Below are positions 17,733-37,907 of a stretch of DNA of 40,137 bases, one piece after another (position 1 is the first letter of the stretch; each line of letters opens with the position of its first letter). The notes under the pieces are model-generated. The model saw only the letters and a list, made by a program, of their open reading frames with translations, was not told the origin of the DNA and ran no database searches. The position numbers and the translations under genes were made by a program. Source of the DNA: Sarea resinae. Its lineage: Eukaryota. The stretch lies in contig JAPEUD010000057.1 in assembly GCA_026026165.1 (NCBI GenBank), forward strand, positions 124,001 through 164,137, read 5' to 3'.

Positions 17733-18662
17733 ATGTGGTCTCTAACCGCCACGCTCACGTACCTGAAACTCAAATGCCTGGCAACACTCGTGCGGGTCTA
17801 CTACCGCCTCTTCGAAACCGGCCCCCCCGCCACGATGCACTATGACTCGATCCTCAACATCCCGTCCCGCGACGCCGGCAGGACGATCAAGACGCACGTC
17901 TACGAGTCGACACTCCCCCACAGCGGCCCTCGCCCGGTCCTCATCAACCTGCACAGCAGCGGCTTCGTGCTGCCGCTCCACGGCACCGGCGACGCCTTCA
18001 GCCACCACATCGCCACGCACACGCCCTACACCGTCCTCGACGCCTCGTACCGCCTGTCGCCCGAATACCCCTTCCCCGCCGCCCTGAACGACAGCACCGA
18101 CGTGATCAACCACGTCCTCTCGCAACCAGACAGATACGACACCACGCGCATCTCCGTCTCGGGCTTCAGCGCCGGCGGCACGCTCGCCCTCGTCGCCGCC
18201 CTCCTCACCTTCCCCAAGGACACCTTCCGCTCCATCCTGGCCTACTACCCACCCACCAAACAGTCGCAGGACCACGGCTCCAAAGCCGCGCCCGACCCCT
18301 CGGGCCACCCGATCCCCGGCCCCATCGGCCGCATCTTCACCGCCTCCTACTGCTTCCACCCCGTCGCGCCCTACGACCCCGCCGACCCGCGCATCTCGCC
18401 CTACTTTGCCCCGCTCGCCAACCTGCCCGCCCGCATCCTCTTCGTCACGTGCGCCTGCGACAGCCTGGCGCCCGAGACCGAGGAGCTGGCGCAGCGCGCC
18501 CAGGCCGAGGCGGGCCCCGGCATCCGCGTCGTCAGCAGGCGCATGCCCGGCTGCGATCACTCGTGGGATATCTCGCCTAACCTCGGGCCCCTGCAGCGAA
18601 AGGCTAGGGATGATGCCTATGCGCTCGCGGTTGCGATGCTGAATGAGCAGGAGGTCGAGTGA
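17733..18662 (+). CDS. Alpha/beta hydrolase, HSL family (Abhydrolase_3) esterase/lipase
   Basis: Intronless 309 aa. PVLINLHSSGF, YRLSPEYPFPAALND, nucleophile GFSAGG, CDSL (Asp), DHSWD (His). Confidence 0.9.
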   Translation: MWSLTATLTYLKLKCLATLVRVYYRLFETGPPATMHYDSILNIPSRDAGRTIKTHVYESTLPHSGPRPVLINLHSSGFVLPLHGTGDAFSHHIATHTPYTVLDASYRLSPEYPFPAALNDSTDVINHVLSQPDRYDTTRISVSGFSAGGTLALVAALLTFPKDTFRSILAYYPPTKQSQDHGSKAAPDPSGHPIPGPIGRIFTASYCFHPVAPYDPADPRISPYFAPLANLPARILFVTCACDSLAPETEELAQRAQAEAGPGIRVVSRRMPGCDHSWDISPNLGPLQRKARDDAYALAVAMLNEQEVE

Positions 18663-19085
18663 GTCGGGCCGGTCGAGAAGGTTCGACAATGGTCGTTCTG
18701 GCTGGCGGGAGATCGGGGGCGGTGGTGGGGGCGTAGGGGGGCGGGGGAAGGGGGTGGCGCTATATGTACTCTCCTCTCTCTCTCTTCTCCCGTTTCTAGA
18801 CGTTTTCGTAGTATAGGTAAGGTAGGGTAAGGGAGGCAATGGCACGCCATGGCTGGTATCTGATAGAATAGAAACAATAAAACAATAAAAATGCTTCCAT
18901 AACATTCATATAGAATAGAAAAGTCTTGTATCGTATTATATCGTATCAACTCACCTCAGGCTAGGCTAGACAGCTATGGATATATGATCTGACTAGGTAG
19001 ACGGTGTTGAAGACATTGCAGCAATTCCCTCCCTAGATACGCTTTGAAAATAGTATAGTAATCCTATATCAATACTATATCGATC

Positions 19086-19515
19086 ATAGATAACAGATAA
19101 CAGATAGATAGATAAACAGATGACAAGACCGCAGGACCAGCGACAAGATTCTACTTGCGTCTCGTCCTGTCTCGTCTCGTCTCGTCTCGTCTCGTCTCAT
19201 CCGAGTTAGCTGACTGGTTGGCTGGCTGGCTATGACAAACTCGTAAAAAGCAGTGGACGGGAAGCGGGAGAAGTGCGAGAATGAGAAGCGGAGGGGAGGG
19301 AAGTGCGAGAATGAGAAGCCAAAGGGAAACGGAAGGCAAGGCAAGGCAAGGCAAGGCAAGGCAAGGCAAGGCAAGGCAAGGCAAGGCAAGGGAAGGGAAG
19401 GGAAGGGAAGAGACGGGACGGGAACGGAGTGAGAGTGATAGTGTCTGTCTGTCTGTCTGAGGTAGAGTACACATAAGGTAGAGTCCACGTAAGGTAGGTA
19501 GGTAAGGTAGGTAGG
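19086..19515. repeat. Microsatellite cluster: (CAGATA)-like, (GTCTC)n, (AAGGC)n/(AAGGG)n, (GTCT)n, (AGGT)n, and a 20-bp duplication
   Basis: Read directly: (GTCTC)n ~19159-19198; (AAGGC)n then (AAGGG)n ~19333-19410; GAAGTGCGAGAATGAGAAGC at ~19270 and ~19300. Confidence 0.9.
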
Positions 19516-19567
19516 AAGAGGTGAGGTTGGGAGAGGTGAAGTGGGGTGCACGGGTTTGACGGGAAAC

Positions 19568-19733
19568 TGGTGAGGCGTTCGACGAAAAAAGTCCCGAAAA
19601 CTACGACATAGCCCTCCAAAGTGAGACAGACGTTCGACGAAGACGAGCCCGAGTGGAGGAGAGTTCGACTTTCTCGCCGGCCGTTATCCCAAAAATGGTG
19701 AGACGTTCGACGAAAAAGTGTCGAAAACTACGA
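19568..19733 (+). repeat. Imperfect ~38-bp direct repeat with GTTCGACGAA cores
   Basis: TGGTGAGGCGTTCGACGAAAAAAGTCCCGAAAACTACGA (19568-19606) vs TGGTGAGACGTTCGACGAAAAAGTGTCGAAAACTACGA (19696-19733); extra GACGTTCGACG cores near 19628 and 19813. Confidence 0.8.
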
Positions 19734-20237
19734 TTGGGAGATTACGTAAGCTGAGGTCTGTGGGTGCCTGGATTCGCGGTCCCTCTCTAAAATCATTGGA
19801 TGTGTAGTAGTAGACGTTCGACGGAAACAGTATGAAACTAACCTGAAGGTACCTGTCTCTGTGTACTCTTCAATACTCCGAATTGGAAGTAGCTGGAGCA
19901 CCACGCTCAGGTAAGAAGCTAAGGTAGACAGTGATAAGCATCTTGATGTGATCATAGATGGAAGCTCTTGCTGCCTTATACGTGATGAGTGTGTCGGTGT
20001 CTGTTTATCTTGACGTGATAGCTTGCCTTGCCAGTGAAGCATTATGCTGATCCGACTTATCAGTGACTGAGACGTGTAGCTCAGGCCGAAAGATATAAGA
20101 AAAGTTACGGGTAAGCTGTATGAGATATTTGTTAAGCATAGCGATAGGTTTCACCGAGGCGAAGATTACGAGGTAGTAGATGACCAAAAATAGGACAATG
20201 CATTGATTCAGCAAGAAAGCTAAGTCCCAAAAAAGTA

Positions 20238-20402
20238 TCACCACAGCCAGGCACCCCCCCGCCCCCATCGCCCTCCTCGACCCCCTCGGCCTCCTCGGCC
20301 CCCTCTTCCCCCTCGGCCCCGGCCCCCCCGGCCCCCCCGGCCCCCCCGGCCACGCCACTGTTGTTGCTGTTGTTGCTGGTGCTGCTGCTGGTACTGCTGG
20401 TA

Positions 20403-20469
<67 letters not shown>

Positions 20470-21221
20470 CACTGCTGCTGCCCCTGGGGCCCAGGACCGT
20501 AGAAATTGGACCCACCCATAATAATTTGCTGAGGACAACGTTAGTAACACATCAAAGGAATGGTCCAGGTATGACTTACGGTGGGCCAATAAACTACGGC
20601 CCCGAGCCCCCCCACGGGAAGAGAAGGCAGGCCGGGCGCGGGCACGGGGAGGAGGAGATGGCGGGGCGGGCGGGCGGCGGCGGGCGGGCGAGCAATTCCA
20701 GCCCAGCCATGGGGCCGGACACGACCCCGGCCCCGGGCGCGGGGGTGCGGGCCCAGTCGCTCCTCGAGCTGCACCCACCTCTCCACTATGAGTATGTATT
20801 AGTTTCGATCATCAATCATCAACAAAACCAAGTATTACACTTACCAGAGGCGACCGATGGGCCGCGTGGGGGCCGTGGGCGGGGGCCGGCTGGCGGTGGC
20901 GGTGGTGCTGGGGTTGGAGCTGGGGCTGGTGGTGGTGGTGGTGGTGGTGGAGGAGGAGGAGGAGGAGGAGGAGGAGGAGGATGGTGAGGACGCGGCGAAT
21001 GGGATCTTCTATTATCTACACGTTGTTAGCATCTTACTCGAATAGGTCTCACCAAGGACGTGATAGATCAGGAATGACAGGCTCAAATTGAGAGTAGTGA
21101 AGGTGAAGTAAGAAGAGGAAGGTCTCAATAGGATCGAGAGGATAACATTGAGAACAATAAGACGATGGCCTTGCTCAAAGAGTAGGTCCGACGATAGGAA
21201 GTATAACTCACTGTCTGTCAT
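20238..21221 (-). CDS. Orphan 264-aa protein (copy A): hydrophobic N-terminus, poly-Pro, conserved core, poly-Gln, RGG repeats, ends AWLW
   Basis: Exons 21221-21212, 21169-21053, 21015-20845, 20785-20580, 20528-20238 (795 nt). GT..AG introns give consistent phases and no stops. The paralog at 25.2-25.6 kb keeps the exon-4 frame with synonymous changes and in-frame indels. The start codon and the 37-nt intron 2 are the least certain parts. Confidence 0.62.
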
Positions 21222-21987
21222 CTTTGAAGTAGTGATAACCAAAGAGGAAAGGAAAAAGGAAAGGAAAGGAAGACGGAATCTGGACCTACTCATACCTACG
21301 ACTACGGGTTACCCTACGACCATTTTGGACACTCGATTCACCCATTGTGCGAGTCATCCTCAAACGGTTTCAGAGGTGGTCCGATTAGGGCAGGGCTTGC
21401 AGACACTGCTGAGAGCATATGACCTCAGGTTCACGTCGGCCACTCCAGCTGTTGCCGTCATGATGGCTCGCTACCAACGGGACGGGATGGACGATTGGGC
21501 TGAACTGGTATCGTTGCTGCCTGTCCTCTGCTTTCATGTGAGCTCCATCTTTCTCGCATAGAAAGTAATAGACAAGGCATCACTATGATTATGTTTAGTG
21601 ACGTAAGCTCTGATCGTTATAGCGAATTCGAAATCGGTGAGATGTCATGATAATGGAAGCCATCGTCATCACCATAGCAGTAGAGTCTCATGTGGTTCCG
21701 GCGTATGATGCCCGATCCATACAGGTGGTATGGCATGCTGCCCACCTCAGTTCATCTGTGATCTTATGATATCGAAATGAAGCTTCGTGGTGATCTCAAT
21801 GAATCCGGATGACGAGACACAGTAGAACATGCGAGCGAGCGTACGGACTGGATGTTAAACGTCAACAGAGGGCTCATTTGCATTGATCCACCATCATTCA
21901 ACCTCGACCAGACCCCCAAGCTGTTGGCTTCGTCTATCTCGATTCACGATGCTTGATCACAGATGCAATTGGACACGACCCTCGAAC

Positions 21988-22536
21988 CTAGAAGTAGTTG
22001 GTGTTTAGCTGTAGGACAAAAAAAAGTCTGAAAGACACAGGGAAAAGCGGGGGCAATATAGTCTTCAATAAAGCACAGCAAACACAGATAAGGACAGCAG
22101 GTACAGCATATAAAAGAGGATGTGTAGAGTTTTCTGGTGGCACGCGTCCTTTACGGATTCTTTCCTGACACTTCTCAGCCAGCGCTGTCAATGTGCTGAT
22201 TAGTCCTTTCGAGGGCATGGACCAGATCATTGTGTTTGGGCCACTTGGAACAGAGACCACTAGACCATCAGCAGCACCGGCTGCGGTACTGTCAAGTCGT
22301 TGAAGCAGAACTGTCAGAATGGGCGCAGACAAAAGCATTGAATCAAAATAAGCAGCCCGAAATCTTTTCAAAACCATCCTTTTCTTATCGATGGCCCTAC
22401 AGTCATGAAAGCATCGCGGCATATCTCCGTGGGACAAATCAAGCCAAAAGGACACTTTGAGTACACAACGCAGCTCTACCCCATTTCCATACTCAATTAT
22501 AAATTGCGAGACTGATCGATATCGGGCTGCTGTCAT
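21988..22536 (-). other. Unassigned 182-aa ORF in island 1, possibly a degenerate gene
   Basis: Open frame from an ATG on the same strand as the other island genes; no recognisable motif. Confidence 0.2.
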
Positions 22537-23398
22537 GCGGAGGAAGGCGAAATGGGTGATAATGAAGCATTAGCAGTGTGATGATGATAGAACGTCGAAG
22601 GACATGAGGTTCTATGGATGGATGGACGTTGTGCTAAGCTGTTGCACGCGGGGGAGCTAACGCAACCGTCCCTCTGCTACTTTGAGGTAGTGTCCCTTAC
22701 TAAGCTGGCATGAAGCGCTGCCGAAGGTATTTCAAAGTACCTTCTGTCGAAGAACAGCCCATATCGTACTCTGGAGTACATCTATCAACCTCCCACTGCG
22801 TGTTGATATATTCGGCTATATGGCTATCGATTCATCTACCCTACTAAACGGCTAGAACTACAGTGCGTTCATATAGCTAGAAGGGTCTTGCAAATGCATA
22901 CCTTGGTACAGTTGTGGCCGAAGCAGAACGTCGACTTCTATCTATGTTTCTGTCAGTACTTTGTTTGGATAGGTCTCTAACGGCGTGATAGGTCAGGAAT
23001 GGTAGAATGACGTTGATAGCAACAAGGTCGAGGACAGCGTACGATGTCTCTCAAATCCATTACTATTCACGCAGCTTAAGCTATGGGAGAGTAGCGATAG
23101 TGAGAGACCTAGCTTGCCGCAATCTAGAGCTACTACATCATATAGATGATATGCGTTTCTAGAAAATTCGAAAGTAAGGGCCCCTAGATTTTGGCCAGGA
23201 GGATGAGGAACATCAGGTGAACAACAGATCCTGCTGCGGAGAGCGTCGATAGTATGAAAAGCTCATAGATAAAGTCTAGGATATGTCGTTTTCTGATAGT
23301 AAAGGACGTGTTTTGCTCAGCATAGATAGGCAGCTAAAAGAAAACACATTCTTTCCCCTCCCTTACTTTCAACTTATCCTGAAATAATTTAGTTAAAT

Positions 23399-24977
23399 CT
23401 AGATTCTCTTTAATGTACGGTTGTATATCATGGCTAATGCCTCGAAGCGCATTATCAATTCCGCAAACTTCTCTTTATTGTCAGGCAATTCGAGTCTGGA
23501 CGCCTATCACACTGTTCTAAGAACAGCTTCACCTTCTCCCCCTCTCTCCATGGAAACGGCAAACTGGGATGGCTATGTCTGAGGCCAATCTTCACGCCTA
23601 GGACCTTCATGGCCCCGCGCCCTATGTCCCTCCCCCCCTTCGGCGCACTGCATGGCCTTCAGAAGTCTGGCCCTGATGACAGCATTAACTCTCTCTGCAC
23701 CTCTTCGAAGGGCAGCCTGAACTTCCCTTTTAATATCGGCCCTTCTCAGTGAGCGTTGCACTTTCTCGCTATCCACATAGCGCGCAGTGACGCCGTACTT
23801 GTCCTCTTCGATCGTGACTTTCTCTAGGCCAATCGTCGAGTGGCCCCAGAGCTGCTGCTCACCTATCAGACCACTCAGGCTGTACCTCTCCATTGCACAC
23901 GCAGTGTTGAGCCCTATCCGCTGTCGCTCCCTCAACGGTGGGAGAATGCTAGCCCGAACGAAGGCACACGCACTAGGCCCCATCACAGCCACGTCCAGGA
24001 GCCCAATACAGAACCCTTCAGCCAGAAGGATCTCTTTTGCGTCGCTTGCGCGGAGACCCATCTTGCTCGCATTCTATGACGCCAGTATCTTCACCTCGAC
24101 CGAGGTCTCTTCCCTCTCGATCCCTTCAGAGATCCGATAAGTCAGATCTTTTGCCAGCGTGTACTTCCTTCGCTGCTGACTTGAATGGGTCAAGGCACGG
24201 TTCCTGATCCCTCCCTTGCGCCTCCCTGAGCCAACGTACAACGCCAGCTCCTAGCCTCTGAGGGCCACCGCAAGATAGACGCCGCGCTTTTCTGAGACTT
24301 TTTGGCCCTTCACCGATTTAGGCGCCGCGTTCGGCAACGCATCGATCAACCCCACATCAAGCGTAGCAAGAAACGCTTGGGCCTCCGAGTTGAAGTGGCC
24401 GATCAACCGCCCTGCAAGCTCTGCGCTTGACCTGCCTCTCTGCAGCGCGACAATTCCGCCATGGACGGCATTGGCATCGAAATGCCGAACGATCTCATTT
24501 GCCGTGTAGAGCTTCTGCTCGCAGGTATATTTCCTGCCGGCCCATCTGAACGGGAAATTTAGAGTCAGCGTCTGTGCTTGCTGACTCAAAGACTCGATTT
24601 CATATTTACCTTGCCTCCACCGAGACCATCGTCTCCTCGATCTCCTCCACCTCATCATCTTCCACTCCATCCTCCTCCGACCCATCCTCCAATTCAGACT
24701 CATCCCATTCGAACACGACCTCCTCCGAATCCTCACCCTCCAGCTCCTCCGCACCCCCCAGCTCCTCCTCACTCTCTGGCTCCTCCTCACTATCCTTCAC
24801 CTCGTACACGCGTCCTGCCACAGCCGTGGCCGACTTTCGCTCCTCACTCTCCAGCTCCTCCTCACTGTCCTTGACCTCGTATATGCGTCCTGCCACTGCC
24901 GTGCCCAACTCTTCCTCCACCCGCTGCTTCTTATGCAGCCCACCCACCTGCTCCAATCCTCGCTTTGTACCTGCCAT
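23399..24977 (-). pseudogene. GIY-YIG-like nuclease-domain pseudogene with acidic N-terminus
   Basis: Exon1 24977-24610 (MAGTKRG..KKQR, duplicated TAVAGRxYEVKDSEEE, Glu-rich); intron 24609-24546; exon2 in one frame: RGVYLAVALRG*ELALYVGSGRRKGGIRNRALTH...ILAS*...LLAEGFCIGLL...IGLNT...QT*...RTV**ASRL...KRI*. Five premature TAG/TGA stops, no frameshift. Confidence 0.65.
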
Positions 24978-24996
24978 AGTATTCGATATTGACTAA

Positions 24997-25045
24997 ATAA
25001 TTAATTGATTGATTAAAACTGATTAATTGATTGATTGATTGAAAC
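24997..25045. repeat. AT-rich (TTGA/ATTA)n tract just upstream of the GIY-YIG-like gene
   Basis: attaattgattgattaaaactgattaattgattgattgattgaaac. Confidence 0.7.
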
Positions 25046-25164
25046 AAAAGTATTCGAATAACGGCTGGGACGATGTGGGGAAAGAATGGTAAGTCTTGGG
25101 GTGAGAGGACTCGAGCCAGGTAACGAGCCCGCTCCCCACAAGACCCGGCAGTGAGCCTGGATTA

Positions 25165-25629
25165 CGACTCACGGTGGGCCAATATACTACGGCCCCGAGC
25201 CTCCCCCCAACGGGAAGAGAGGGGAAGGCGGGCGTGGGGGCGAGCAGTTGGCAAGACGGGCGAGCGACTCTAGCCCAGCCATGGAGCCGGACACGACCCT
25301 GGCCCCGGTCGCGGGGGTGCGGGCCCAGGATCTCTTCCTGGCGGATCCACCGCTCTACTATGAGTGTGTGTCAGTTTTGATCATCAACGAAACCAGGTAT
25401 TCCACTTACCCGACTCGCGGGCTGGTGGTGGTGGTGGTGGCGGAGGAGAAGGGAGGAGCGACGAAAGTGGGTATCTTCTATTATTGTCTACATACCATTA
25501 GCTCTTATTCAAACAGTCTCACGAAGGACATGAGGGATCAGGAAGGAGGATGGCATTGAGAGAAACAAGAGCATAGCCTTGATCCAAAAGCAGGTCCAAT
25601 AATGCGAGATTCAACTTACTAGGTGCCAT
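25165..25629 (-). pseudogene. Paralog (copy B) of the 20.2-21.2 kb orphan gene; frameshifted exon 2 and no Q/RGG exon
   Basis: Same 10-nt first exon (ATGGCACCTA|gtaagt) and same intron positions. Exon 3 NNRR...PPPPPPP; exon 4 VERWIRQEEILGPHPRDRGQGRVRLHGWARVARP...LGAVVYWPT. Exon 2 is 55 nt (out of phase). Upstream DNA at 25970-26160 and ~26390-26470 also resembles 21240-21410 and ~21630-21670. Confidence 0.65.
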
Positions 25630-27051
25630 TGAATGTTAATCAATGGCGTGTTCGCCAAAGAGGAAGACGGATCGTCTCTGATATCTAGTTAGCAGTCTGC
25701 TTTGATCTAATGATCGAGTTGCATTGGTGAGCCAAGTTGCAAATGCATACCAAAGCTCTTCATTCGAATAGGTCTCTTCTGTGATAGATCGAAATGAAAG
25801 GCTGATCCCGGGAGCAATGAAGCAATGAAAGGATAATCTCGACTGGGAGAAGAGAATGACATCGACAGCAGCAAGCGGATGATATCGACAGCAACAGAAG
25901 GATGGCCTTGCTCGCAAAGCAGGTCCAACAATAGAGATATGACTTACTCTCGGCCGTTCTGAAAAAAGGACATCGATGAGGAAAGAAAGGAAAGGGAAGA
26001 CGGATCCTGGCCGTGCGTAATTCTTATAATTACGAGTACGGATAGGTTACCCTACAACCATTTCTGAACGAATACACCGATTTCTGTGTGCGAGTCATCC
26101 CACCCAATGACAGAAGCGACCCCATTGGGATAGGGCTTATAAACTATTACGTATGTTAATATCAAAAGATTGGAACCTAAGGTAGGTGCTTACCTGAGGC
26201 ATGTGACTCTAGGCTGACGATCATGCAAGGCAATGGCCGATCAGCAGGAGAAGGCATCCACAGATGCTATTGTTGACCTGGAAGATATGATGGAGCCAAA
26301 CTTCTGTAGTCGGCGCTGCTAGTCAACCGTGCTCAGATGAGCTGTAGACTGTTCGCACCGATAGGTACAGTCATCTGAATACCGTCCTAGAAATCGGTGA
26401 TATCTGAATTTACCGAGTAACATGATTCTTCGTAGTTAGTAATTGAGATGTCAAAGCATGCCATCGTCTTCGAAGATATAAGCTCGAGGTAGAGTGACAT
26501 TCTAGTATATCATGGCTTCTTTTCCAGATCTCTTCCCTGCTGCTGAATACAGGTATATCTGTCTCAGATATAGACTACCATCATCAAGCTGCGAGCTGAG
26601 CATGTCGTAGAGTGCACCTTCATCGTGATTAATTTTTTCTAGTAATCAGAACGGCCGATTGGGATACTCGAATAAGCGCATAAGCATGCCTCGATAGACA
26701 GTAACACCTCACGCTCTTGAAATTTCAACATAAATCAGAGCAAATGAGGTCCTCGAGCCGTGAGCTGCATCCATTTCAATGCATGACGCGCGATTACAGC
26801 CGCGATCGAGTATGACTCACGACCGTAACTAGCGGATCCGACGTTTAGCTGTAGGGCAATGCGGAACTTGAGCGATTTCTTCTTTCGGAAAGGCATAAGA
26901 GAAGGCGCAGGCGATATGATTATCAATTAAGCAAACGAAATTCAGAGACAAGTACGGCACATTGAAAATAGACACAACTTCTTGGGGGCAAGCGATCATT
27001 ATGTATTCTTTTTCTTGCCAAACAAAATCAGCGCGGCACTGAACATCCAAA

Positions 27052-27903
27052 TTAGTAGCCTTCAAGCCCATTGAGAGCCAACCCCTCCATCATCGATAGC
27101 CTCGAAGTGACGGAAGCGTCGCAGCATCTCTGATAGACAAGTTGAGCCAGAAGCAATGACGCATTGCGGATATTGTCAAATCTGAGCTTTCTTTTCCTGC
27201 TGTAGAAGGAGAACTCTCGAAAATGGTGGCTGGCCATAGAGGCCTGGAAGCCGCTGCTATAAGGGATCACGGTCGGGTTGACTGCCACGGTTTCTGACAG
27301 CGCTGATTGCGTCGATCTCTCTGGTTGGTGCGATTCAGCAATGACGAGCATATCTCCATCCCAGCCAGACTGAAGGTGATGGCTTCTGTAGGCTTTGCTG
27401 TCTTTATCCGCGAACAAAGTACTTGACAAGGCAAAAAGGCAATAGGTAGTGGAAGAACTGGAATGGTGGATGTTAGAAGTCAAGGGGCATTGTGCGGACA
27501 TTCTGTAGTAAAGGCGATGAGGCGTAAAGTATAGGTCAACGAATGGGGAATAAGCAAATAGTGGATGCACAAGTGAATGAGCAAACAGTGAATGAGTAGA
27601 TCCATGATTCGGAGGCTGCACTTCAACACTTCCCATCTTCAAGAAAGAGCACAGCGTCCTCGTCTCTATGAAGCCATTGAGGCAGAGAAAAGATAAAATG
27701 TAACCTGAAAAGTCAATGCCGTATAGTACCAATAGAGCATGGAACAGAGCGGCAAAGATAGCAAGGATGGAATGACAAGAAGCTCTTCCGCGCACAAGAT
27801 CTGATACGGAGGTAAATCTACCTACCAGTCGCCGATATGTCGGATTCTGCTCATGGAAGTCTATGTCAACGCTCGCGCATACTGGCAAAACGTATGGTCC
27901 CAT
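27052..27903 (-). other. Unassigned 283-aa ORF in island 1
   Basis: Long open frame from an ATG; no recognisable family. Confidence 0.2.
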
Positions 27904-28328
27904 AACTAGTAATAAAAGTCACTGTACCGATTTGATAAGCCGTAATAAATGCCATTGAAATGTGATATTCAAAAAGAAGGTATGAAGAACAAGAATAGAG
28001 GCCCCGAACGTTCTATCGAACTGCGAACGTTGCTTAGGTAATATGTGCGATGGATGGCACGACATCGACTGCATGGGTACTGCGTACCTTAGGAGTGGCA
28101 TTCGCTAAATCGGCTTATATAATCGAGGTCTGGGGCGCCTCGCTTACGCAAGCCTCGTACTCCGTACTTCGTACCTTACGGAGTACCGTTCGGATCAGAC
28201 TCGGCTAATACGGTGGGGCTAGGACGCAGCTAGTGTAACCACCAAAAAATTTCGAAAGGAGCCGGGCCGCCCCCTGAATCCCCGAAAAAGGGTGGAATAT
28301 CAGCGCTTTAAGCACAACATCTTTCAAC

Positions 28329-28432
28329 GCTTGGATAGCGCAGTTGGTTAGCGCGTAGGTCTCATAACACGTGACTGTTCTGTTAACAGAGCAGATATCC
28401 TAAGGTCGTGGGTTCGAATCCCACTCCGAGCA
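28329..28432 (+). tRNA. tRNA-Met (CAT), elongator type, with ~30-nt intron
   Basis: Acceptor stem GCTTGGA/TCCGAGC, D-arm GCGCAGTTGGTTAGCGC, anticodon arm TAGGT-CTCATAA-TCCTA (CAT at 28363-28365), intron ~28367-28396, T-loop GGTTCGAATC, followed by a T run. Confidence 0.93.
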
Positions 28433-28440
28433 AGCACCCC

Positions 28441-28456
28441 TTTTTTTGCATTTTTT
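28441..28456 (+). terminator. RNA polymerase III oligo-dT terminator of tRNA-Met
   Basis: T-runs starting 9 nt after the tRNA 3' end. Confidence 0.75.
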
Positions 28457-28961
28457 CTTCATACAATTTGCTCTACATCTCTTTACATCGTCTCTGCCCG
28501 GTACGGAAGGTGCATTCACTTGGCTGAGACCTTAGCGAGGGTGACCGAAGGGTAGGTACCTCGCGACCTAGCTATGTCTTTCCTTTGGTCTGCGGGTTCT
28601 ATCTATCTCACCAGATAGGAGGGGAGCGGAGTTTTCTCCTTTTACTATTCTGATTTATGTCCTAACTTGCTGCGTATTATATGATAGCACTCAATCCCCC
28701 TTAAGCTTATTACTCTTGCACATCATATCTTTCTCTCTTTATTATAGTTCTAATATTGTCTTATATCTCTATATGTCTAGGTATCTACTACGCTGTTAGA
28801 GCTAGTATCTAATACCTTCTTTTTCGATAGAAACATGCTATTCGTTCCGCCACTCTTCCCAGGACAACAACAATAAGGCTACCGAAGTGCTTTTTATAGT
28901 GGAGTCCTTGATTTGTCTCAACTCTCATCTATATTGCTTATATAGGATTTTAGAAGTTCAT

Positions 28962-30224
28962 CTAAACGTCCAATGTCCTCCCTGTCTTGGAGCTTTCCTT
29001 CGCCAGCTCGATCAACCTGATAACGGCACCGGCTTCCTCGGGCTTGACTGGCACTTCTCCCTTGCCACGCAGCGCATCCGCAAACCTTTGATAGAATTCG
29101 ACGTACGTGGGAGGGTGCGCGGTGGGAAAGACCTTGCTGACCGGCTTGCCGTCTTGGATAGTCGTCAATGTGCCTAATATAATTAGTAAGAGCTGATCTG
29201 GGTACTACTCCAGCTTACCGAAATGATCCTCTGATTCGATGGCGAATCCGGCATCTCCCGGCTTCATTCCTGCCTTCAATTGATCCTCCTGTACATCCAA
29301 GTGGAACTGGCGAGACATTAGCTTCTCTTTTCCATTCCCTGCGACTGTGTCCTACCTTCTTGAAGCTGCCCTTGTCTCCGCGGACCCAATATCTCAGCTG
29401 AGCGACCTCTGGGCTGACGACCGCAGCCTTGACGGTGGCCATCAGCTGGTCGTAGTGCAGCAGTACAGTGCAAGAATCTTCGAAACCGCCAGTATCACCC
29501 TCTCGTTGCGAGCCAACGAATCCGGTGATCTTCTTGGGGAGTCCAAATGTCACGACGACCTGATCGATCAGATGCGTGCCGAGATCGAAGACGGCGCCGC
29601 CCCCAGGCATCACCTTGGTCTTCCAACTGCCGCCGGATGGGACTTCTGGTCTGTGACGGTCGAAGTGGGTCTCGAATTCAGCGACGCGTCCGAGAGTATT
29701 GCTTTTGATGAGATGGGACAGTGTGACAAAGTCGGAATCCCATCGGCGATCTGTTTGATGTCAGCGGAGATCTAACGGCGAACTGCTAATCGGCCATACT
29801 CTGGTATACGGTAAGAAGGCGATGGTTCTTCTTTGCCAGGGCACTCAATTCCTGAGCTTCTTGATGCGTAGGCGTGAAAGGCTTCTCCACGATGACTGGC
29901 CCTCGTTAGAATCCAGAGATGTGTAGGCAGTAAAGACATACCATTCTTGCCCGCCTCCAGCGCGAGCTTCGCCAGATAGAAATGCGATTCGGGCGTGGTC
30001 GTGACCACGACCACGTCCACGGCAGAGTTCTTCACCATCTCTTCGGCCGAGCGGTAGCCCTTGACCCCGGCATGGTCTTTCTCGGCATCATCGTCTGGCT
30101 TGGGGCTGCGCTGGACAATTGCGTGGAGCTTGAACGCTGGCGTCGCGAGGATGAGAGGGATATGGAAGACTTTGGCAGACATGCCATAGCCGATGACGGC
30201 GACGTTGAAGGTTTGGGATGACAT
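28962..30224 (-). CDS. Gfo/Idh/MocA-family NAD(P)-binding oxidoreductase
   Basis: Exons 30224-29942, 29895-29800, 29750-29356, 29306-29219, 29173-28962. VAVIGYGMSAKVFHIP, VIVEKPF, YQNRRWDSDF, FDLGTHLIDQ, HLDVQEDQLK. Confidence 0.93.
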
Positions 30225-31260
30225 GTTGATTCTTCACAATGGCAATAGATAGGTTTTGTAATATCAAATACACGTCGGCGCATAGGCCCATATATATATT
30301 CTTCGAAGAGGCCGCGAAAAGCTATGGTAGATGGAGTGATCTGGAAGCGGGCTGGCTACGAGTGCCCCTCGGTGGGGTAAAATGCCGGCTCTGACGTCTA
30401 ACGCCGTCCATACAAGGAACCAAATCCGAAGCAGGAATGCGCCAATTGGAACCCAATTGCAAAGTTTCAACATATTCCCAGCTATGACTTCCGTCGACTG
30501 CGTGCTTTCCAATGACATACATAGGTAGTACTGCATCAGGTAGGTATAGTAGTGGCCAGAACAGACGCCATGTGTCAAATCCTGCCAGTGAGCGATAATG
30601 CTCGTTTAGAGATGGATGGCACCGCGCCAACTACCTAGAGTGTGAACTAGAAGCAAGGACCCGCCAAACGTCGCGCTTCGACCTTCCACTGCCACCACCG
30701 CGTGTTTGAGCCTGACTAATCATCAACATTACGTGTTTGGTAGAGTCACAGCTGATCCCAACCAAAGACCTCTCGGACGCGCGAACACCGTCATGAAAGA
30801 CAGAAAGAGAATGTTTTAGGCGTCAGAAAAGCACCTAGCTTCGACCCGAGTGCTAAGTGCTGCTAGTATGCCCATGTGCATCGTGACACACTTTGAACCC
30901 TCGTAGCCACAGTCTCCGAGGATGCCCTGGTCCGGATGACTGACAAATGAAAGACACAAGGAGACAGTAAGGAGAAAAGAAGAGAAAGGCAAAGTAGGCC
31001 TCAGAGCCGCAGTACCGCTAATGATCGGACTCAGAACCCTTGATGTCCCCTTCGTCACCCCCAGGTACTTTTCTATCTTGGAGGAGTGGAATGGAGAGCA
31101 TCTCAATGAAATCATGCCTTTCAGACAATGGATCGTCTCCGCCCAAACTTGCTTGTTGGCTTTCAAAGAAGCGCTGAGCTTATTGTGTGGAACTGCTTCT
31201 TAGGCACTCCCACTGTGCTGTTAGTCTGATGCTTATGACGGAATTTGGTTGGCGATACAC

Positions 31261-32030
31261 TCATCTTGGCTTTTGAGTCCAGCACTTTCCGGGGGGGAGC
31301 ACGATTCCGGGGCAATTGGAATTGAGGATATGGGGCCGAGCGATCTCGAGCAGGGCGATGGCCGCCTCTCTGCTGCTTTGGCTCACGGGTCCTATACCCT
31401 GGGTTCGGCGCACGGGAGAGCGAGAATGAGCGCGCGAGCTATCTTGTGCATGGCGCAATATCCGCATCACTTCACGCGCCATCCCAGCTACTCTCTCTAG
31501 CTCGGTATTGCTGGTACTGAGCTGGACAGCGGTGGTGACCATGGAACGCCGGTTGTTGGTTCGATTGCAGCGGCGGGATCGTGGAGCGGCTTCTCGAACC
31601 TTATCCTCTAGCTGTTCATTGGAAGATTACATCCATTGATGCTCTCGTTCCCCACATGTCCGGCATATGGCCATGCAAGGCGGGTGTGATGGCCATTACA
31701 GGTCCCACAATGCCGTGCTATCTCTTGATAGTTTGGGATTTAGGGTGGTCGATAATATTTTCCGCAATTAGGGCACATTGGCCGGTCTTCTCTTTGCCTT
31801 TGCTGTGGCGGCGCCTGTTGCTGCTGCTGCCACTTTTGCTGCCACTGTTGCGGCTGCCACTGCCATTAAGCTCTTTGCTGGCGGAGCTTACGCCGCTGCA
31901 AGAGCCGCTGCAAAGCATCTTTTCTTCGTACTCGTCCTACTGGTTAGCCATCTCTATAGTGTATGGACTTACCTGCTGTTTCTTCCGCTGTTCGTCTTCT
32001 TGTCATTCTCTTTGGTGGTGTTGGTATCAT
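31261..32030 (-). pseudogene. Decayed gene with a Q/W-rich stretch and three CCHC zinc-knuckle-like motifs
   Basis: Manual translation: MIPTPPKRMTRRR..|..QQRA*WQWQPQQWQQKWQQQQQ..CPNCGKYYRPP*..HCGTCNGHH(frameshift)PPCMAICRTCGEREH..., running into the frame of ORF 31261-31542. Has TAA stops and one frameshift. Confidence 0.5.
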
Positions 32031-32345
32031 GAGAAGCTCATACGAGGAGAAAGTGGACAAGGTGTGGAGGAAGTGGATAAGGTGAGTGAAGCTCTTCGTC
32101 CATCTTTGTGCGTCTGCGTCGTTTACTCACCATTAAATATAGTATCTAGCCCTAATCGGCAGGGTAGGACAGGGTTACGGCCGTGTCTCCTGTAGTTGAT
32201 TGCGTTTTTTAAAACATAGATTCGAGACTGATCGTAGGCTTGTTTGCTTTCATGTCTGACGTGATAGTCATGATAATAGCCTCTGTGAGGTGTTTACAAA
32301 CATTTCATATATTGTGGTTGATATTGATCAAAAAAGACACCACCG

Positions 32346-33811
32346 TCATCTTCGTCCTCGTTGATGGGCATCTCGGATGTGCTTATTCAAACTTTCGACA
32401 TGAACGCTGACACTGCAGATATTACATCGTGCCTTTCTTCCCTCTTGGCCCGAGCACCGGTTGCTCCTATGTTTTGCCATGTCCGCAGGTGCCACCTTGT
32501 GGTCACAATCTGAACACTTGACCTTGTCCTCGTGCTTCCTGCTCTTGTGCTGTCTCAAGCCGCGTTGAATATGACTTCTCGCAGAGATCGCAATGGAAGC
32601 TTTTAGACTTCTGAGCAACCTTGCCAGGCGCATGCATTTTTGCCTTGTGGTGTTGGACGTCTGTGTTCGTCGGCCCAACGTACTCGCACGAATCGCATTT
32701 GACCCCAATCGCCAAATGCCTACCAACATGCTTCCTCACTGCGGGGCCCGGGTGTGTGCCTGCCCAGGGAAATGTTTGGCCACAGAACAAGCAATCTCAT
32801 TCTGCGGCTGTTATCTTTCTGACGACATGGTTGACCAGGGCTTTATGGTCGCCAAATGTATCCACACAGCCGCCGACAGGACACAAAAACTGGCCAGTGA
32901 TATCTTGGCTGACCGTTATACGTTCCAGCGAACGCGCCTGCGACCTAACGCCTTTGAGGTGACGCTCGCGTTTTGCTTCTTCCGTCCAAGCTTGCTCTTT
33001 CGGCTCTTTCTCCTCTATCTCGCCAAATGGGTCGATCGTTTTTGAATTTCGACCGCCCAGCTTTAGTGCCCTGTTGTTGCGGGCACCCTGCGCCATGCTA
33101 TCATTCCAATGGTTACTACTGTCTCCAATGATAGGAACGTGGACTTACCTTTCTTTGTTCAGAGCCACCTGGGCAAAAGGTCTCACGAACCGTGCTGCGG
33201 GACGGGAGTCAACCACTTTGTTCTCCAGGTTGTCCCTACTCTGAAGCAAGCTTGAGACTTTGTATTCATCAAAGTCTTTGTTGCTGTTCCACACGAACAC
33301 AAAGAGATTTCCATTCAGGTAGGGATCAAAAATCCCCAAAGAGCAAAGATTGGTCGACAGCCCATCTGCTTGGGCCTGTACGACTATCACTCTTCCACCA
33401 TTCGCCTTCTCCATCTGTGTCTCGATAGAGCTTCTTAGCTCTTTTGGCCCCACTCTTGTGGAGACCAGAAAGTTCGTGTTCATGACAAAATCGGGATGTA
33501 TGTCATCTCTGGGCTGCCGCTACAATCTTTATGATTTAGCTTGTGCGCCCTCTCGATGTAGAGCTTCCCCAAGAGCTCGCAGCGATCTTGAAGACGCGTT
33601 TTGGCGTCTGCAGTCTTCGTGCCCGTGGCTACAGAAGACATCCGAGCCACACATATCACAGCTTTCAGCTGCTCCGGCGAGCTCGGGAGCACTGGCATTT
33701 CCTCCACGTCTGCGTTGCATGAGAACATTGACTTTTGCACTGCAGATGTGGAGACACTTTACCTTCATCATCGAAAGGCATACTCGGACACATGATGCTC
33801 TTAGATTCCAT
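32346..33811 (-). pseudogene. Pseudogene: putative serine-recombinase(resolvase)-like N-terminal domain plus about six C2H2-type zinc fingers
   Basis: Exons 33811-33763, 33709-33149, 33097-32346 with GT-AG introns. KAVICVARMSS...VIVVQAQADGLSTN, then CPVGGC..H, CLFC..H..H, CDSC..H..H, CDLC..H..H, CSDC..H..C, CNIC..H..H. Frameshifts near 33490 and 32560; premature TGA at ~32797. Confidence 0.6.
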
Positions 33812-34662
33812 CTCAGGGAATCGAAAGCGACGATTCATCTAGAAGAAGAGAAGCATAGATGGAGAGCAGGAAGATGAGGAAGAGTAAAACGAGAAGAAGA
33901 ACAGTGATCACGAGAATGATAATGATGATTATGATTGTGATGGATGTTGAGAAGACAGCTGGAGAGGAAGAGAATGAAGATTGCAGTTGCGGAATACTGA
34001 TAGGGTAACCGTGTGATGCTGCCCTACATCCTCTTTACTGATACATCAGATGCGTCAATTACGGTACTTACCTAAGGTATGATATTCGTGGAGGGTGCGT
34101 CGACTGGCCCCCTACTCCGGAATACTTCATAACTTTACCAACCATAATTGCCACAGTCATTACAGGCTCGTTGCTGTTGATGCTGCCATTGCTGTCAGAG
34201 CTGCTGGGCCCCGGAACTATGATACATCTCCAAGCTCTTCTTGTTGCTAAGGAGAGCCAACTCGAGCTGGTGGTTGCATAGAGCACTCTATCACCTGGTT
34301 GTCCCGTCTCTTCTGATTGCCTCACCCGGGCAATGACGGCCCTGTGGCATTCGTATAGCATCGGAGTCGGGCGAGAACAAGAATAGACACTCACAAATAT
34401 TCATCGACGCCTTTCTCGAAGGATGTTATATTTCTGGATCGATGGCTGAGCCAATGTAACTCCCGTACGCGCTGACCGCGATGTCCACAAAAGACAGAAG
34501 GAAAAGATTGTGTAGAGGGTTTTGGTAACGTATGAACGAGTTGTGTCTAATATGCCTCGCGATAGGTAGGTTCCACCACCACTTACCGAGTGGGAGATTA
34601 AGAGGCCAGTAGAGTACCATATTTCCATAATTAAATTTTTGCACGATAGCTATCGCGACAGA

Positions 34663-34713
34663 TCACCAGAGCCATGCTCCCCGTTGCTGTTGTTGCTGCT
34701 GGGGCCCAGGACT
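34663..34713 (-). pseudogene. Terminal-exon remnant (copy C) of the Q/RGG orphan family
   Basis: After GCTAAT..TTTTCAG the frame reads SPGPQQQQQQRGAWLW*, matching copy A's GPGPQ..QQQ..RGGAWLW*. Confidence 0.6.
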
Positions 34714-36448
34714 CTGAAAATGTATTAGCAAAGTAGCGGATCTCAACAATTGGCAGTCCCATGGCTCCCATAGCCTTTGACGTCCCTAACGAGCAAGCGG
34801 CGCCGGGAGATGTCATCTTGCTTGTACTACTCAGCTAGACACGCAGATATACATAATTCTCTGTCTGACGAACGGTCTTTTGCTTTGAGCTTTAGCTCGG
34901 TTGGTGGTTTGGCTTCGAGGCGCTGACCTGCATAGTTAGGTCATTCCGTATATTTCTCAATCGTGCCTGTTCTATTAGGAAGGCTGTAGTAATTCATTGT
35001 ATTTTATATTCTATTCGTTTTCATGGCATCATGTCTTCAATTTTCTTTTCTCTTTTCGGAGTCTTGCTCACTCAAAACCCCAGGACGAGCGCAATACATC
35101 CATCGACCCCATGGTGATTGTCACATTCACTAAAGAATGAGCTTTCTTGATCCAGAGCAAAAGTGAATGGCCACTTCACAAGCGAACGTGCTCTCTTTCC
35201 CCGACATAAGTCCCAGACTTCTTTGGAGGCAGTCGGTTGGTGACAGGCTCGAGACTGAAGAAAAGGGAAGCAAATCAGATCTCTTGATCATTTGTATCGT
35301 CTCGATCAGTTGTAGGCGTCTGAGGCTCGGAAGTTGCTTGAGCTTGCGACGTGTTAATGAGTGAGTAGGGGGTGGGAAAACACCTCCCTATGTATACCTT
35401 ATATTAAGGCCCCTCGGGCCCATCCAGATGTCGTGGATGGACTGTTTCGTTTCACGGGGGAAGCTTACAGTTTCGCCGGATAATTGTTGTATGGCCATAT
35501 CCTAGGCTAGTAAATGCAGACAAAGTGAGGACTCCAGTATGAAAATCAGTTTGGTGGTCTGTCTGTGGTCTCATGAAATAAGCAAACAAGACGCATGATA
35601 GTTAAATGAAGGGCAAGCTTATATCAAAAAAAAGGTGTTGAGAGGCTAACTCTAACAGCACAGTGGATGGATGTGTAGAGACACGAGACAGCATCAGAAC
35701 CAAAGAAGAGAGCAAAATGCAGCAAGCAAGAGTGATGAGCGAGAGAAAGAATTAGTCGCAGTAGAAACAGAACGATCGCAACACTGACAAGGACATAGTG
35801 GAGATGACTGGCGAAAGGGAGAGCATGAGAGGAAGAGATATTAGCACTTTCATGGGCGGCGGTCGAGCACATTCAATGTCTTGTGGTATTGCAGCTCACA
35901 ACATGACCGTAGTAACGACTGACACATTCACTCAAAGTGTTAGGGGGGTGGCTCCATTTCTTACATCATACTTACCCCGCTGGTAGGCAAAGAACATCAC
36001 TAATCCCTCTCCTTTCACATCGACTATCAAGTAACACCATCGACCATCGACGGTAGAATGCTGGCATGTTTCGGGAGGAGGGTCAAGAAGATGAGATTGA
36101 CGCTCGATGGGGTGGAAAGAAAGCAATGGAATTTCGAGGGAATGTGATGGGATGTCGAGAGTGCTCTAGAGTTCAAATATCAGGCGATTTGAAAGCTTCA
36201 AGGGGCGAGTTCGAGAAGTAGCAGAGTATGGGTTTGGTCTATCCTTTGCCATTCTCAAGTCTTTAGATCTCAGCTTCGATCAGTCATAGTCTTGTCATCT
36301 GAGACTTCTACATAGCATTGGTTCCCTCCTGTATGACAATCAACTCATTCTTGGCAACCAGTGAAAAGGAGGTCCAAACAGATGGACAAATAATGAAAAG
36401 AATTGTCGTATTGAAAATCAGACGTGAACGTGGCTCATTGACATGATA

Positions 36449-37672
36449 TCAAAGCTGAAACTTTGTCCTGGTCTTCTCCATCTGTCCCTTCCATTCCCAC
36501 TCGACCCCGCCATCCCCGCCCCTCTGAATACCCTTGTCGACACGTCTGAGCTTCAAGGTGAATCGTGGGCCTAGCTCCTGCAAGCCTGCGCGAATGCCCT
36601 CGACGCCTTTGACCTCCTTTCCGTCAGGCCCGACGACGTTCTTCTCGGTGGCGCGCTTCTCCCGGAAGACGTAGCGATGTCTCCGGAAGAAGAGGTAATC
36701 TCGCTGATTGTGGACGGTGACGACCTGGCGGCCCTCGATGTCTGGTTGCGGGGGAAAGAGGGTTCGGAAGAGATGGGCGGTCAATAGACCGAGGGGAGTG
36801 CGAAAGTTGTTTAGGATCAGCTCCGGGATGTGATTGGTGGGGTTGCCGTGGCCTGGCAACTTGCGGCCCTCGACCCAGTTCGAGATGGAAAAGTGAAAGG
36901 TTGGCCCGGCGGGAAGGTGGACGATGGTGAGCCCCGTCGGGCGTTTCTGGTCTTCTTTCAAGAGGACGACGGTGGTATAATGTCTGTTGCTGGCAAAGGA
37001 GCAAATTTCGCGGAGAGAGAATTTGTGCGCGTAGCGGTGGCCGGAGCGGGGGATGTAGACACTATAGGGAAAAAGAGTCGTCAAGAGTTCGGCTTCGTGG
37101 TGGAGGGTGCTGTTCAGAGAGGTGGTGACGAGGATTTTGGGGACTGGCGGCGGAGTGGTGAAGAGGGTTGGAAATTTAAAGGCCAAGGCGTCGGGAGTGA
37201 GGTCGAGGTTTGTTTTTGCTTGGGAGACTTCGGAGGGTTTTGGTTTGACGTCTTTTTCCTTGGCTTCGTCTTCTTCGTCTTCTTCGTCCTCTTCGTCCTC
37301 GGAGAAATCAATCATGCTATCTCGGTCCTCTGAATCTTCTTCGTCTGCGACATCTGTCGCGACTGCTTCTGCCACTTTCGGTCTCTTCAGCCGTTCGACA
37401 TCGACACTCATGCCCAAGCCATCTCCGGCTTCATCTGTGACTTCATCCCAGACTCGTTTCCTGTCGATGGTGGCAGGTATGTTGCGATTGCGTCGTTCTT
37501 CGCGCAGACTCGGGTCCTTGTCTTCTTCTCGTTTCCGGCGGAAGCGCTCGTCGCGCTTGAGACTGTCCCGCGCCTGCTTCTGTTTGACGTGCAGAGATTG
37601 GCGCTTGAGCTTGTTGGCGGTCTTGAAAGGCAGTGATGCCTTGGACGAGAGTTTGGATTTACTCGACGCCAT
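36449..37672 (-). CDS. RPF1: Brix-domain ribosome biogenesis factor Rpf1
   Basis: Intronless. NKLKRQ, NIPATID, PKILVTTS, HLPAGPTFHFSISN, PELILNNFRTPLG, GRQVVTVHNQRDYLFFRRHRY, LQELGPRFTLKL. Confidence 0.92.
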   Translation of the reverse strand: MASSKSKLSSKASLPFKTANKLKRQSLHVKQKQARDSLKRDERFRRKREEDKDPSLREERRNRNIPATIDRKRVWDEVTDEAGDGLGMSVDVERLKRPKVAEAVATDVADEEDSEDRDSMIDFSEDEEDEEDEEDEAKEKDVKPKPSEVSQAKTNLDLTPDALAFKFPTLFTTPPPVPKILVTTSLNSTLHHEAELLTTLFPYSVYIPRSGHRYAHKFSLREICSFASNRHYTTVVLLKEDQKRPTGLTIVHLPAGPTFHFSISNWVEGRKLPGHGNPTNHIPELILNNFRTPLGLLTAHLFRTLFPPQPDIEGRQVVTVHNQRDYLFFRRHRYVFREKRATEKNVVGPDGKEVKGVEGIRAGLQELGPRFTLKLRRVDKGIQRGGDGGVEWEWKGQMEKTRTKFQL

Positions 37673-37907
37673 GGTGGTGGCTATGTAGAAATTTGGCAGG
37701 TTTTGCAAGTCTGGAATTTCGAGATTATGGATTTCCGTGTCGGTGACAATGGAGATGGAAATACTTTATTCCGGTAGAGAGCCCACCCGAAAGAATCATG
37801 GATCCATGATGACTCGCATCGAAAGTGAATCAGAAACAAATCTTCGCCATTGAACTACACACAAACTCAGGCTGTCCGACTTATTCGTCTTCATCTTCTC
37901 CAAGTAC
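37673..37907. promoter_or_regulatory. Compact bidirectional promoter between RPF1 and glycyl-tRNA synthetase
   Basis: Head-to-head start codons ~235 bp apart. Confidence 0.55.

Follow-up and report, generated by a model that had tools for sequence, protein, structure and literature searches.

Two gene-poor islands on a contig of the fungus Sarea resinae, which is classified in the Sareomycetes (Pezizomycotina), are probably a lineage-specific, weakly constrained nuclear region that has been shaped by local duplication, simple-repeat slippage and gene decay. The islands lie within a window of 40,137 nucleotides (nt) of contig JAPEUD010000057.1 (assembly GCA_026026165.1, positions 124,001 to 164,137), which is the whole stretch of DNA that was analysed, in which all positions given here are counted, and which consists of eukaryotic, nuclear, intron-bearing DNA. 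Island 1 (18660-28328) extends from an esterase gene to a tRNA gene and island 2 (30234-36448) from an oxidoreductase gene to a gene of the RPF1/Brix type; a first-pass annotation made from the sequence alone had set their bounds at 19568-28100 and at about 30.8-36.4 kb, and had proposed that they are either the decayed insertions of a non-canonical, intron-containing mobile unit or a local birth-and-death locus. As they stand, the islands are neither a working system nor a recognisable mobile element.

No Pfam-supported gene is present in either island, in agreement with the first-pass annotation. The Pfam scan covered the 150 longest six-frame open reading frames (ORFs; all of at least 54 amino acids, aa) overlapping 19000-36440, where 171 ORFs are at least 50 aa, and the curated cut-off was reached by three of the 150, all of them exons of the oxidoreductase gene that separates the islands. 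Twelve read-through frames (six each of 19001-28300 and 30240-36450), in which stops were written as X to catch fragmented genes, returned nothing from Pfam at E≤0.05 apart from CEP104_ZnF, whose match (0.0024) stays below the cut-off. All of the recognisable genes and relics of both islands sit on the minus strand, so that the earlier statement on their orientation holds for every one of them, and the GC content of the islands is 0.49-0.50 (0.50 for island 1) compared to 0.535 in the flanks.

Pieces of a gene family ending in AWLW occur in both islands, as had been claimed, with the copies A1 and A2 in island 1 and A3 in island 2. A1 (20238-21221, minus strand) is an apparently intact four-exon gene encoding 278 aa, with one continuous frame from the ATG at 21221 to the stop at 20240-20238 over three introns (21052-21016, 37 nt; 20844-20786, 59 nt; 20579-20529, 51 nt) that carry canonical GT..CTAAC/CTAAT..AG signals. 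The product is of low complexity (P 18%, Q 15%, G 14%, R 11%), passing from a moderately hydrophobic N-terminus through Pro-rich, Arg-rich, Gln-rich and RGG stretches to a GAWLW end (RGGAWLW), and is probably disordered. A word-based protein search with A1 exon 3, by the tool's own note weak evidence, returned nothing, the self match included, from which A1 in its spliced form seems to be missing from public annotation.

A2 (25163-26138, minus strand) is a partial copy of A1 that comprises the promoter region, a tandem-duplicated exon-1-like unit and exons 2 and 3, has ACG in place of the A1 start codon and lacks the tail exon, its likeness to A1 stopping precisely at the intron 3 donor. The two copies share 65-73% nucleotide identity, all 13 of the non-self tblastn matches obtained with 581 ORFs join the A1 and A2 places, and four of the eight non-self blastn pairs join 20.5-21.4 kb with 25.1-26.1 kb, the only two places for which self-comparison shows true paralogy. 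Exon 3 of A1 and A2 differs by 4-7 synonymous and 17-23 non-synonymous codons in each of the six frames and, because the counts are alike in all six, there is no sign of constraint or purifying selection between the copies; the pattern of differences is the one that neutral drift would give. A3 (34663-34713, minus strand) is a relic of the tail exon that reads SPGPQQQQQQRGAWLW and a stop, to be compared with the RGGAWLW and stop of A1, and has a GCTAAT branch point and a TTTCAG acceptor upstream of it. Across GAWLW and the stop, A1 and A3 differ solely at three third-codon positions. A second Gln- and Trp-bearing run at 34160-34230 (minus strand), which ends CNDCGNYGW and a stop, is 75% alike to A3 over 44 nt, and the CAG/CAA/TGG runs at 31.8 kb and 34.2 kb resemble the Gln-run of A1; these runs are low-complexity sequence and were not counted as members of the family. 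A 43-nt DNA pattern from the family core had no match in metagenome contigs.

Gene decay is seen next to A1 in a dead gene with a GIY-YIG-like motif (23576-24975, minus strand), which has its ATG at 24975, an acidic exon 1, one intron and a single frame interrupted by two TAG codons (24251-53 and 24074-76). From 24283 downwards the frame reads GVYLAVALRG-TAG-ELALYVGSG..GIRNRALTH, the lone match to G[IV]Y..Y[IV]G in the six frames of the window, so that the TAG at 24251-53 splits the GVY half from the YVG half, and the frame goes on for 225 codons more. The spacing GVY-x11-YVG compares with 9-11 residues in the family, and IRNRALTH, KEILL and GLN follow, based on an assignment of residues by eye. 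The best match to a hidden Markov model was DUF123, which we take to be a family of the GIY-YIG clan, at E 0.024 (15.6 bits against a cut-off of 25) for the ORF at 24077-24250 and at E 0.14 when the frame was read through, both below the cut-off. PF01541 was not reported for the frame by Pfam, and comparisons with PDB sequences and with PHROGs gave nothing relevant and nothing of note, respectively. GIY-YIG clusters came first, at 0.88, in an Atlas feature search with the 58-aa piece between the stops, a result rated as a lead only, and an AlphaFold2 single-sequence model of the frame was unusable (mean pLDDT, the predicted local distance difference test score, 32.9).

No outside homolog of the GIY-YIG-like frame was found with HMMER among 1.84 billion representative proteins, the four matches being the window's own P0002 and P0003, the helicase P0004 by way of a short repeated motif, and one protein without an aligned stretch. 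Public annotation divides the broken frame into the hypothetical proteins P0002 (220 aa), which ends at the TAG inside the GVY...YVG motif, and P0003 (162 aa), and the middle 58 codons match neither. The sole outside match to any island protein is a 220-aa entry, 'MAG: hypothetical protein M1819_005418 [Sarea resinae]', that is 100% identical. For the GIY-YIG-like relic proposed by the first-pass annotation, the motif is present, while support from profiles, PDB sequences or homologs is absent and the frame is cut by the two TAG codons. The match to the 951-aa helicase P0004 (E 6.8e-11) was set aside, as one short LLAEGFC-type motif was matched seven times to HA repeats and the E-value is inflated because seven repeats match one short stretch of the query. 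A motif at 23950-24050 (minus strand), DAKEILLAEGFCIGLLD, resembles the end of the HA (PF03457) repeats in P0004, and the Pfam HA model had no match to the GIY-YIG-like frame. Exon 1 of the gene holds a 75-nt tandem repeat (24765-24914) that codes for AVAGR[IV]YEVKDSEEE units. A recent mitochondrial origin of the frame was considered and rejected based on the GC content of its 1-kb bin (0.559) and its nuclear-type intron.

Island 2 contains a second dead gene, with C2H2 zinc fingers (32349-33519, minus strand), of which five to six finger units are located at 32349-32900 and to which upstream frames up to 33834 may belong. The array is disabled by an in-frame TGA (32797-99) and by a 1-nt frameshift near 32560, within a finger. 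One of the C-x2-4-C-x12-H-x3-5-H units is strict (32697), others lie at 32516 and 32426, and one is restored only across the frameshift. All of the Pfam zinc-finger matches fall below the cut-off (CEP104_ZnF, 2.3e-5), and a word-based protein search with the finger frame found no outside homolog, which again the tool's own note ranks as weak evidence. As a pattern in the sequence the finger gene is real and, read in this way, dead; the C2H2 relic described previously is thus borne out by the classical repeat and not by the Pfam finger models. The resolvase-like domain that had been assigned to the same gene was not recovered, with no Pfam family of a resolvase catalytic domain for the ORF at 33148-33519 or for any read-through frame, and with Atlas neighbours of this ORF that are ResIII-like (0.82) and whose recognition lies below the useful level. 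A weak hint of DUF6570 (33483-33758, E 0.065) was examined as a possible Helitron trace and dismissed, as no frame matched Helitron_like_N or PIF1.

A further gene remnant in island 2 (31620-31990, minus strand) combines a 36-nt GTAAGT..CTAAC..TAG intron, a CAG/CAA/TGG run and knuckle-like motifs. Depending on the frame, the run translates as QQWQQKWQQQQQ or as an S/G-rich peptide, and it is 77% alike to the Gln-run of A1 over 61 nt. The knuckle-like motifs are distributed over two frames (CPNCGKYY, CGTCNGHH and CRTCGEREH, at 31775, 31709 and 31665), the third being C-x2-C-x4-H followed by a stop, and make up three of the 12 C..C[GN] motifs in the six frames of the whole window, all within 110 nt (31665-31775). 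The strict CCHC pattern, C-x2-C-x4-H-x4-C, has zero matches in the islands, so that the CCHC-knuckle relic of the first-pass annotation is reduced to three degenerate motifs, which may plausibly be an eroded knuckle array. The alternative S/G-rich frame is open over the Gln-run, follows the clear 36-nt intron and ends where the knuckle-like array begins. Two very short introns on the minus strand, one of 37 nt in A1 (21016-21052) and this one of 36 nt (about 31941-31976), both with canonical GT..CTAAC..AG signals, suggest that the genome tolerates unusually short introns.

The coding status of the remaining island frames was assessed with a log-odds score of codon usage trained on 13 Pfam-backed ORFs (3,587 codons), which gave 0.03-0.43 per codon for the training genes and -0.35 to 0.16 for 32 wrong-frame control ORFs. 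All 58 of the island ORFs of at least 80 aa score 0.183 or less, with values of -0.03, -0.08 and -0.23 for the three longest that are not repetitive. The longest open frame in the islands, of 288 aa (27055-27918, minus strand; -0.03), and a frame of 193 aa (21991-22569, minus strand; -0.08, within the range of the wrong-frame controls) have no Pfam match. Genes on the plus strand were considered and rejected, the plus-strand frames of 218 aa and 184 aa scoring -0.23 and -0.16.

The features expected of a mobile element were searched for across the islands. As had been stated, relics of a transposase, reverse transcriptase, Helitron Rep or DUF3435 protein were not detected, and the Pfam scan of the 150 ORFs and 12 read-through frames extends this to integrases, Helitron helicases and tyrosine recombinases. 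No terminal inverted repeats, long direct repeats or shared ends were found at or between the island borders, where the best matches among the four borders are of 10-13 nt, no target-site duplication was identified at the islands, and no partial copies of the tRNA were found. Neither island carries a signature of repeat-induced point mutation (RIP), for which a TpA/ApT ratio >0.89 together with a (CpA+TpG)/(ApC+GpT) ratio <1.03 was taken as the threshold (island 1, 0.74 and 1.30; island 2, 0.65 and 1.39), and both thresholds are passed only by two intergenic 1-kb bins, 19001-20000 and 28001-29000.

Depth in the source sequencing run is flat over the flanks and islands (317-364 for the main contigs; 265-504 across 30 bins), where short or low-complexity matches account for the excesses, and because it is flat the islands are present in one copy at ≥80% identity, although depth approximates copy number and older, more diverged copies could escape it. 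Contigs from Logan's separate assembly of this run match 20994-24486 (record 1) and 29849-33451 (record 5) with 0 differences and bridge both junctions of island 2 (29849-33451 and 33482-38200); as the window is reproduced there without a change, the stops and the frameshift are not the errors of one assembler, though the reads may be the same ones. The Logan contigs break at the left border of island 1, which is full of simple repeats. A search of sequencing runs located DNA of the window in the probable source run only, with no RNA run listed as carrying it. Two further runs of the same study (X2 and X3) gave nothing beyond short matches, for the most part in low-complexity or conserved stretches, and uncovered parts were given no weight as evidence; a scan of metagenome contigs with the RPF1 protein found nothing.

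Additionally, low-depth contigs in run X1 (31.8-41.3, compared to 317-364 for the main contigs) match parts of 20564-27408 at roughly 87% likeness, an example being 27 differences per aligned piece of ~210-240 nt within 26481-27408, and one of them aligns by turns to A1 and A2. Depth in the bins of 34236-36891 is that of the main contig alone, low-depth contigs having been seen only over island 1. A paralog, a second copy or a diverged allele from a second strain could account for these contigs.

Taken as a local birth-and-death locus, the second of the two possibilities raised by the first-pass annotation, the islands are readily accommodated, as A1, A2 and A3 share one orientation and are unequally complete and at least two other genes carry disabling changes (TAG, TAG, TGA and a 1-nt frameshift). 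Local segmental duplication or unequal recombination would have produced the partial copies of A1, which all lie within ~15 kb and keep its orientation, slippage would have reshaped the CAG/CAA, CCN and GGN runs, and point mutations (to TAG, TAG and TGA) and a 1-nt deletion or insertion would have inactivated the neighbouring genes. The order of these duplication and decay events is one that we infer. A1 is possibly a live gene in this scheme, with A2 and A3 as dead copies, and the long frames may likewise be expressed. The GIY-YIG-like frame and the C2H2 array would have been knocked out by mutations that are located inside their motifs (GVY...YVG and the finger array), the knuckle-like array probably was too, and these dead genes may once have acted on DNA.

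Several observations weigh against decay of this kind as the full account. Dinucleotide shuffles reach the length of the 288-aa frame in one of 300 trials and that of the 218-aa frame in six of 300, and as the long frames exceed chance, some of the island DNA codes, or recently coded, for unnamed products. The GAWLW end and stop that A1 and A3 have kept despite three synonymous changes hint at selection on the tail, in a sample of just six codons. Further, GIY-YIG-like, C2H2 and knuckle-like motifs are clustered in 13 kb by a tRNA gene, which is more than expected from the random decay of housekeeping genes. The first two of these would also be at home in a mostly living gene nursery, in which A1, the 288-aa frame, P0002, P0003 and others are young lineage-specific genes and the stops are true gene ends, and which would be in keeping with the clean spliced frame of A1 and the public annotation of P0002 and P0003 as separate proteins. 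This explanation is unlikely, however, as a single motif is split into its GVY and YVG parts by the TAG at 24251-53, well beyond which the frame continues, a TGA and a frameshift lie inside the finger array, codon usage places all 58 of the scored island ORFs in or near the range of the wrong-frame controls, and A1 and A2 show no sign of constraint.

The clustering of nucleic-acid-type motifs by a tRNA gene is the chief support for an eroded insertion of a mobile element, possibly an undescribed and intron-bearing one, that would have brought a GIY-YIG-type nuclease together with finger, knuckle and Q/RGG genes to both sides of the tRNA-Met and of which one decayed copy survives. Such an origin would be consistent with a GIY-YIG-like motif that has Arg, His, Glu and Asn following one another as expected and GIY-YIG clusters as its nearest named Atlas neighbours (the lead noted above), with the knuckle-like cluster and the finger array, with A-family pieces and a single orientation common to both islands, with the tRNA gene between them, and with a GC content slightly under that of the flanks. 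It is nevertheless improbable, given that no enzyme of transposition was detected, that the borders lack repeats beyond 10-13 nt, that tRNA-fragment duplicates and a RIP signature are missing, that depth is that of a single copy and that no homologs were found elsewhere; the ways in which the A copies are shortened also vary, a pattern that local rearrangement explains more readily than one unit inserting repeatedly. The decayed mobile unit envisaged by the first-pass annotation thus gained no support: within the reach of the tests, the source run shows one copy of the islands at ≥80% identity and, since homologs of the island genes were not found elsewhere, their co-occurrence elsewhere cannot be shown. 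In a very unlikely form of this explanation, the islands would be what is left, in single copy, of an undescribed and intron-bearing mobile unit of eukaryotes, with a GIY-YIG-type nuclease and genes with fingers or knuckles and with Q/RGG tails arranged around the tRNA-Met, and the low-depth contigs at ~87% would possibly represent another, diverged copy of the unit or an allele of it. A foreign or chimeric piece that was joined to a fungal contig during assembly or binning is more improbable still; the window does come from a metagenome-assembled genome, and simple repeats crowd the left border of island 1 where the Logan contigs break, but depth is even across flanks and islands, Logan contigs span the junctions of island 2 with the oxidoreductase gene and with RPF1 without a difference, and the islands contain short introns of the fungal type.

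Birth-and-death evolution is known from small local gene families that arise by segmental or tandem duplication and then undergo truncation and pseudogenisation. The islands resemble such families in having same-orientation copies at a single locus (A1 whole, A2 a 5' part, A3 a tail), no constraint between the copies and dead neighbours, and differ from them in that the A family has no known function or detected outside relatives and is mostly of low complexity. Penelope-like elements are retroelements with a GIY-YIG endonuclease that are able to retain introns; the islands share with them a GIY-YIG-like motif and introns in a eukaryotic nuclear setting, whereas the reverse transcriptase that defines these elements is absent from the 12 read-through frames and the island DNA is single-copy. 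With Starships, Helitrons and tRNA-targeting long terminal repeat (LTR) retrotransposons, as these are generally known, the islands have in common gene-poor, cargo-like DNA by a tRNA gene and the weak DUF6570 hint, and they lack a DUF3435 captain, Rep/helicase, reverse transcriptase, integrase, LTRs, terminal inverted repeats and a target-site duplication. UMAG_11064 of Ustilago maydis is the closest described GIY-YIG gene that is dead in the nuclear genome of a fungus, a decayed homing-endonuclease gene that is probably non-functional, lies within a telomeric helicase gene, and has clear homology to mitochondrial endonucleases and mitochondrial codon usage (PMC7593156). The frame in S. resinae is likewise of the GIY-YIG type, on a fungal nuclear chromosome and no longer intact, and differs in having no detectable homolog and no mitochondrial codon usage, with a bin GC of 0.559, an acidic exon at the N-terminus and an intron of the nuclear type.

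The locus is of an ordinary kind, a decaying gene neighbourhood specific to its lineage in a poorly sampled fungal class, the Sareomycetes, and as it stands matters little. It does call for caution in annotation, as P0002 and P0003 represent opposite ends of a single broken frame and the spliced A1 is seemingly unannotated. If true, an origin from a mobile element would extend eukaryotic mobile DNA by a new class based on a nuclease, and no finding here favours that origin.

The surroundings of the islands are as the first-pass annotation had described them, with a tRNA-Met and one ordinary gene in between. The tRNA-Met (28329-28432, plus strand; anticodon CAU, 32-nt intron) was detected with Rfam (59.3 bits) and is the sole match in an Rfam E-value scan of 18700-36500; ARAGORN, run with default settings in bacterial mode, reported no tRNA in the entire window and missed it. 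The ordinary gene encodes an oxidoreductase of the GFO/IDH/MocA family in three exons (28965-30233, minus strand), identified with Pfam (PF22725, 3.3e-25; PF01408, 9.8e-14; PF02894, 7.1e-6). Both flanks are densely packed with ordinary genes, which on the right include the Brix/RPF1 gene that adjoins island 2 (36452-37672, minus strand) and a class II aminoacyl-tRNA synthetase, and on the left a 3-dehydroquinate-synthase-like piece, a WD40 protein, a NIPA magnesium transporter, a CAF1 ribonuclease, a copper amine oxidase and the alpha/beta-hydrolase esterase that adjoins island 1 (17733-18659, plus strand). Antisense to the esterase gene there is an ATG-started open frame of 387 aa (17745-18905, minus strand) with a GC content of 0.58-0.62 and no Pfam match, probably a by-product of composition, and shortly past the esterase gene a (GGCAA)n/(GGGAA)n microsatellite occupies 19305-19439.

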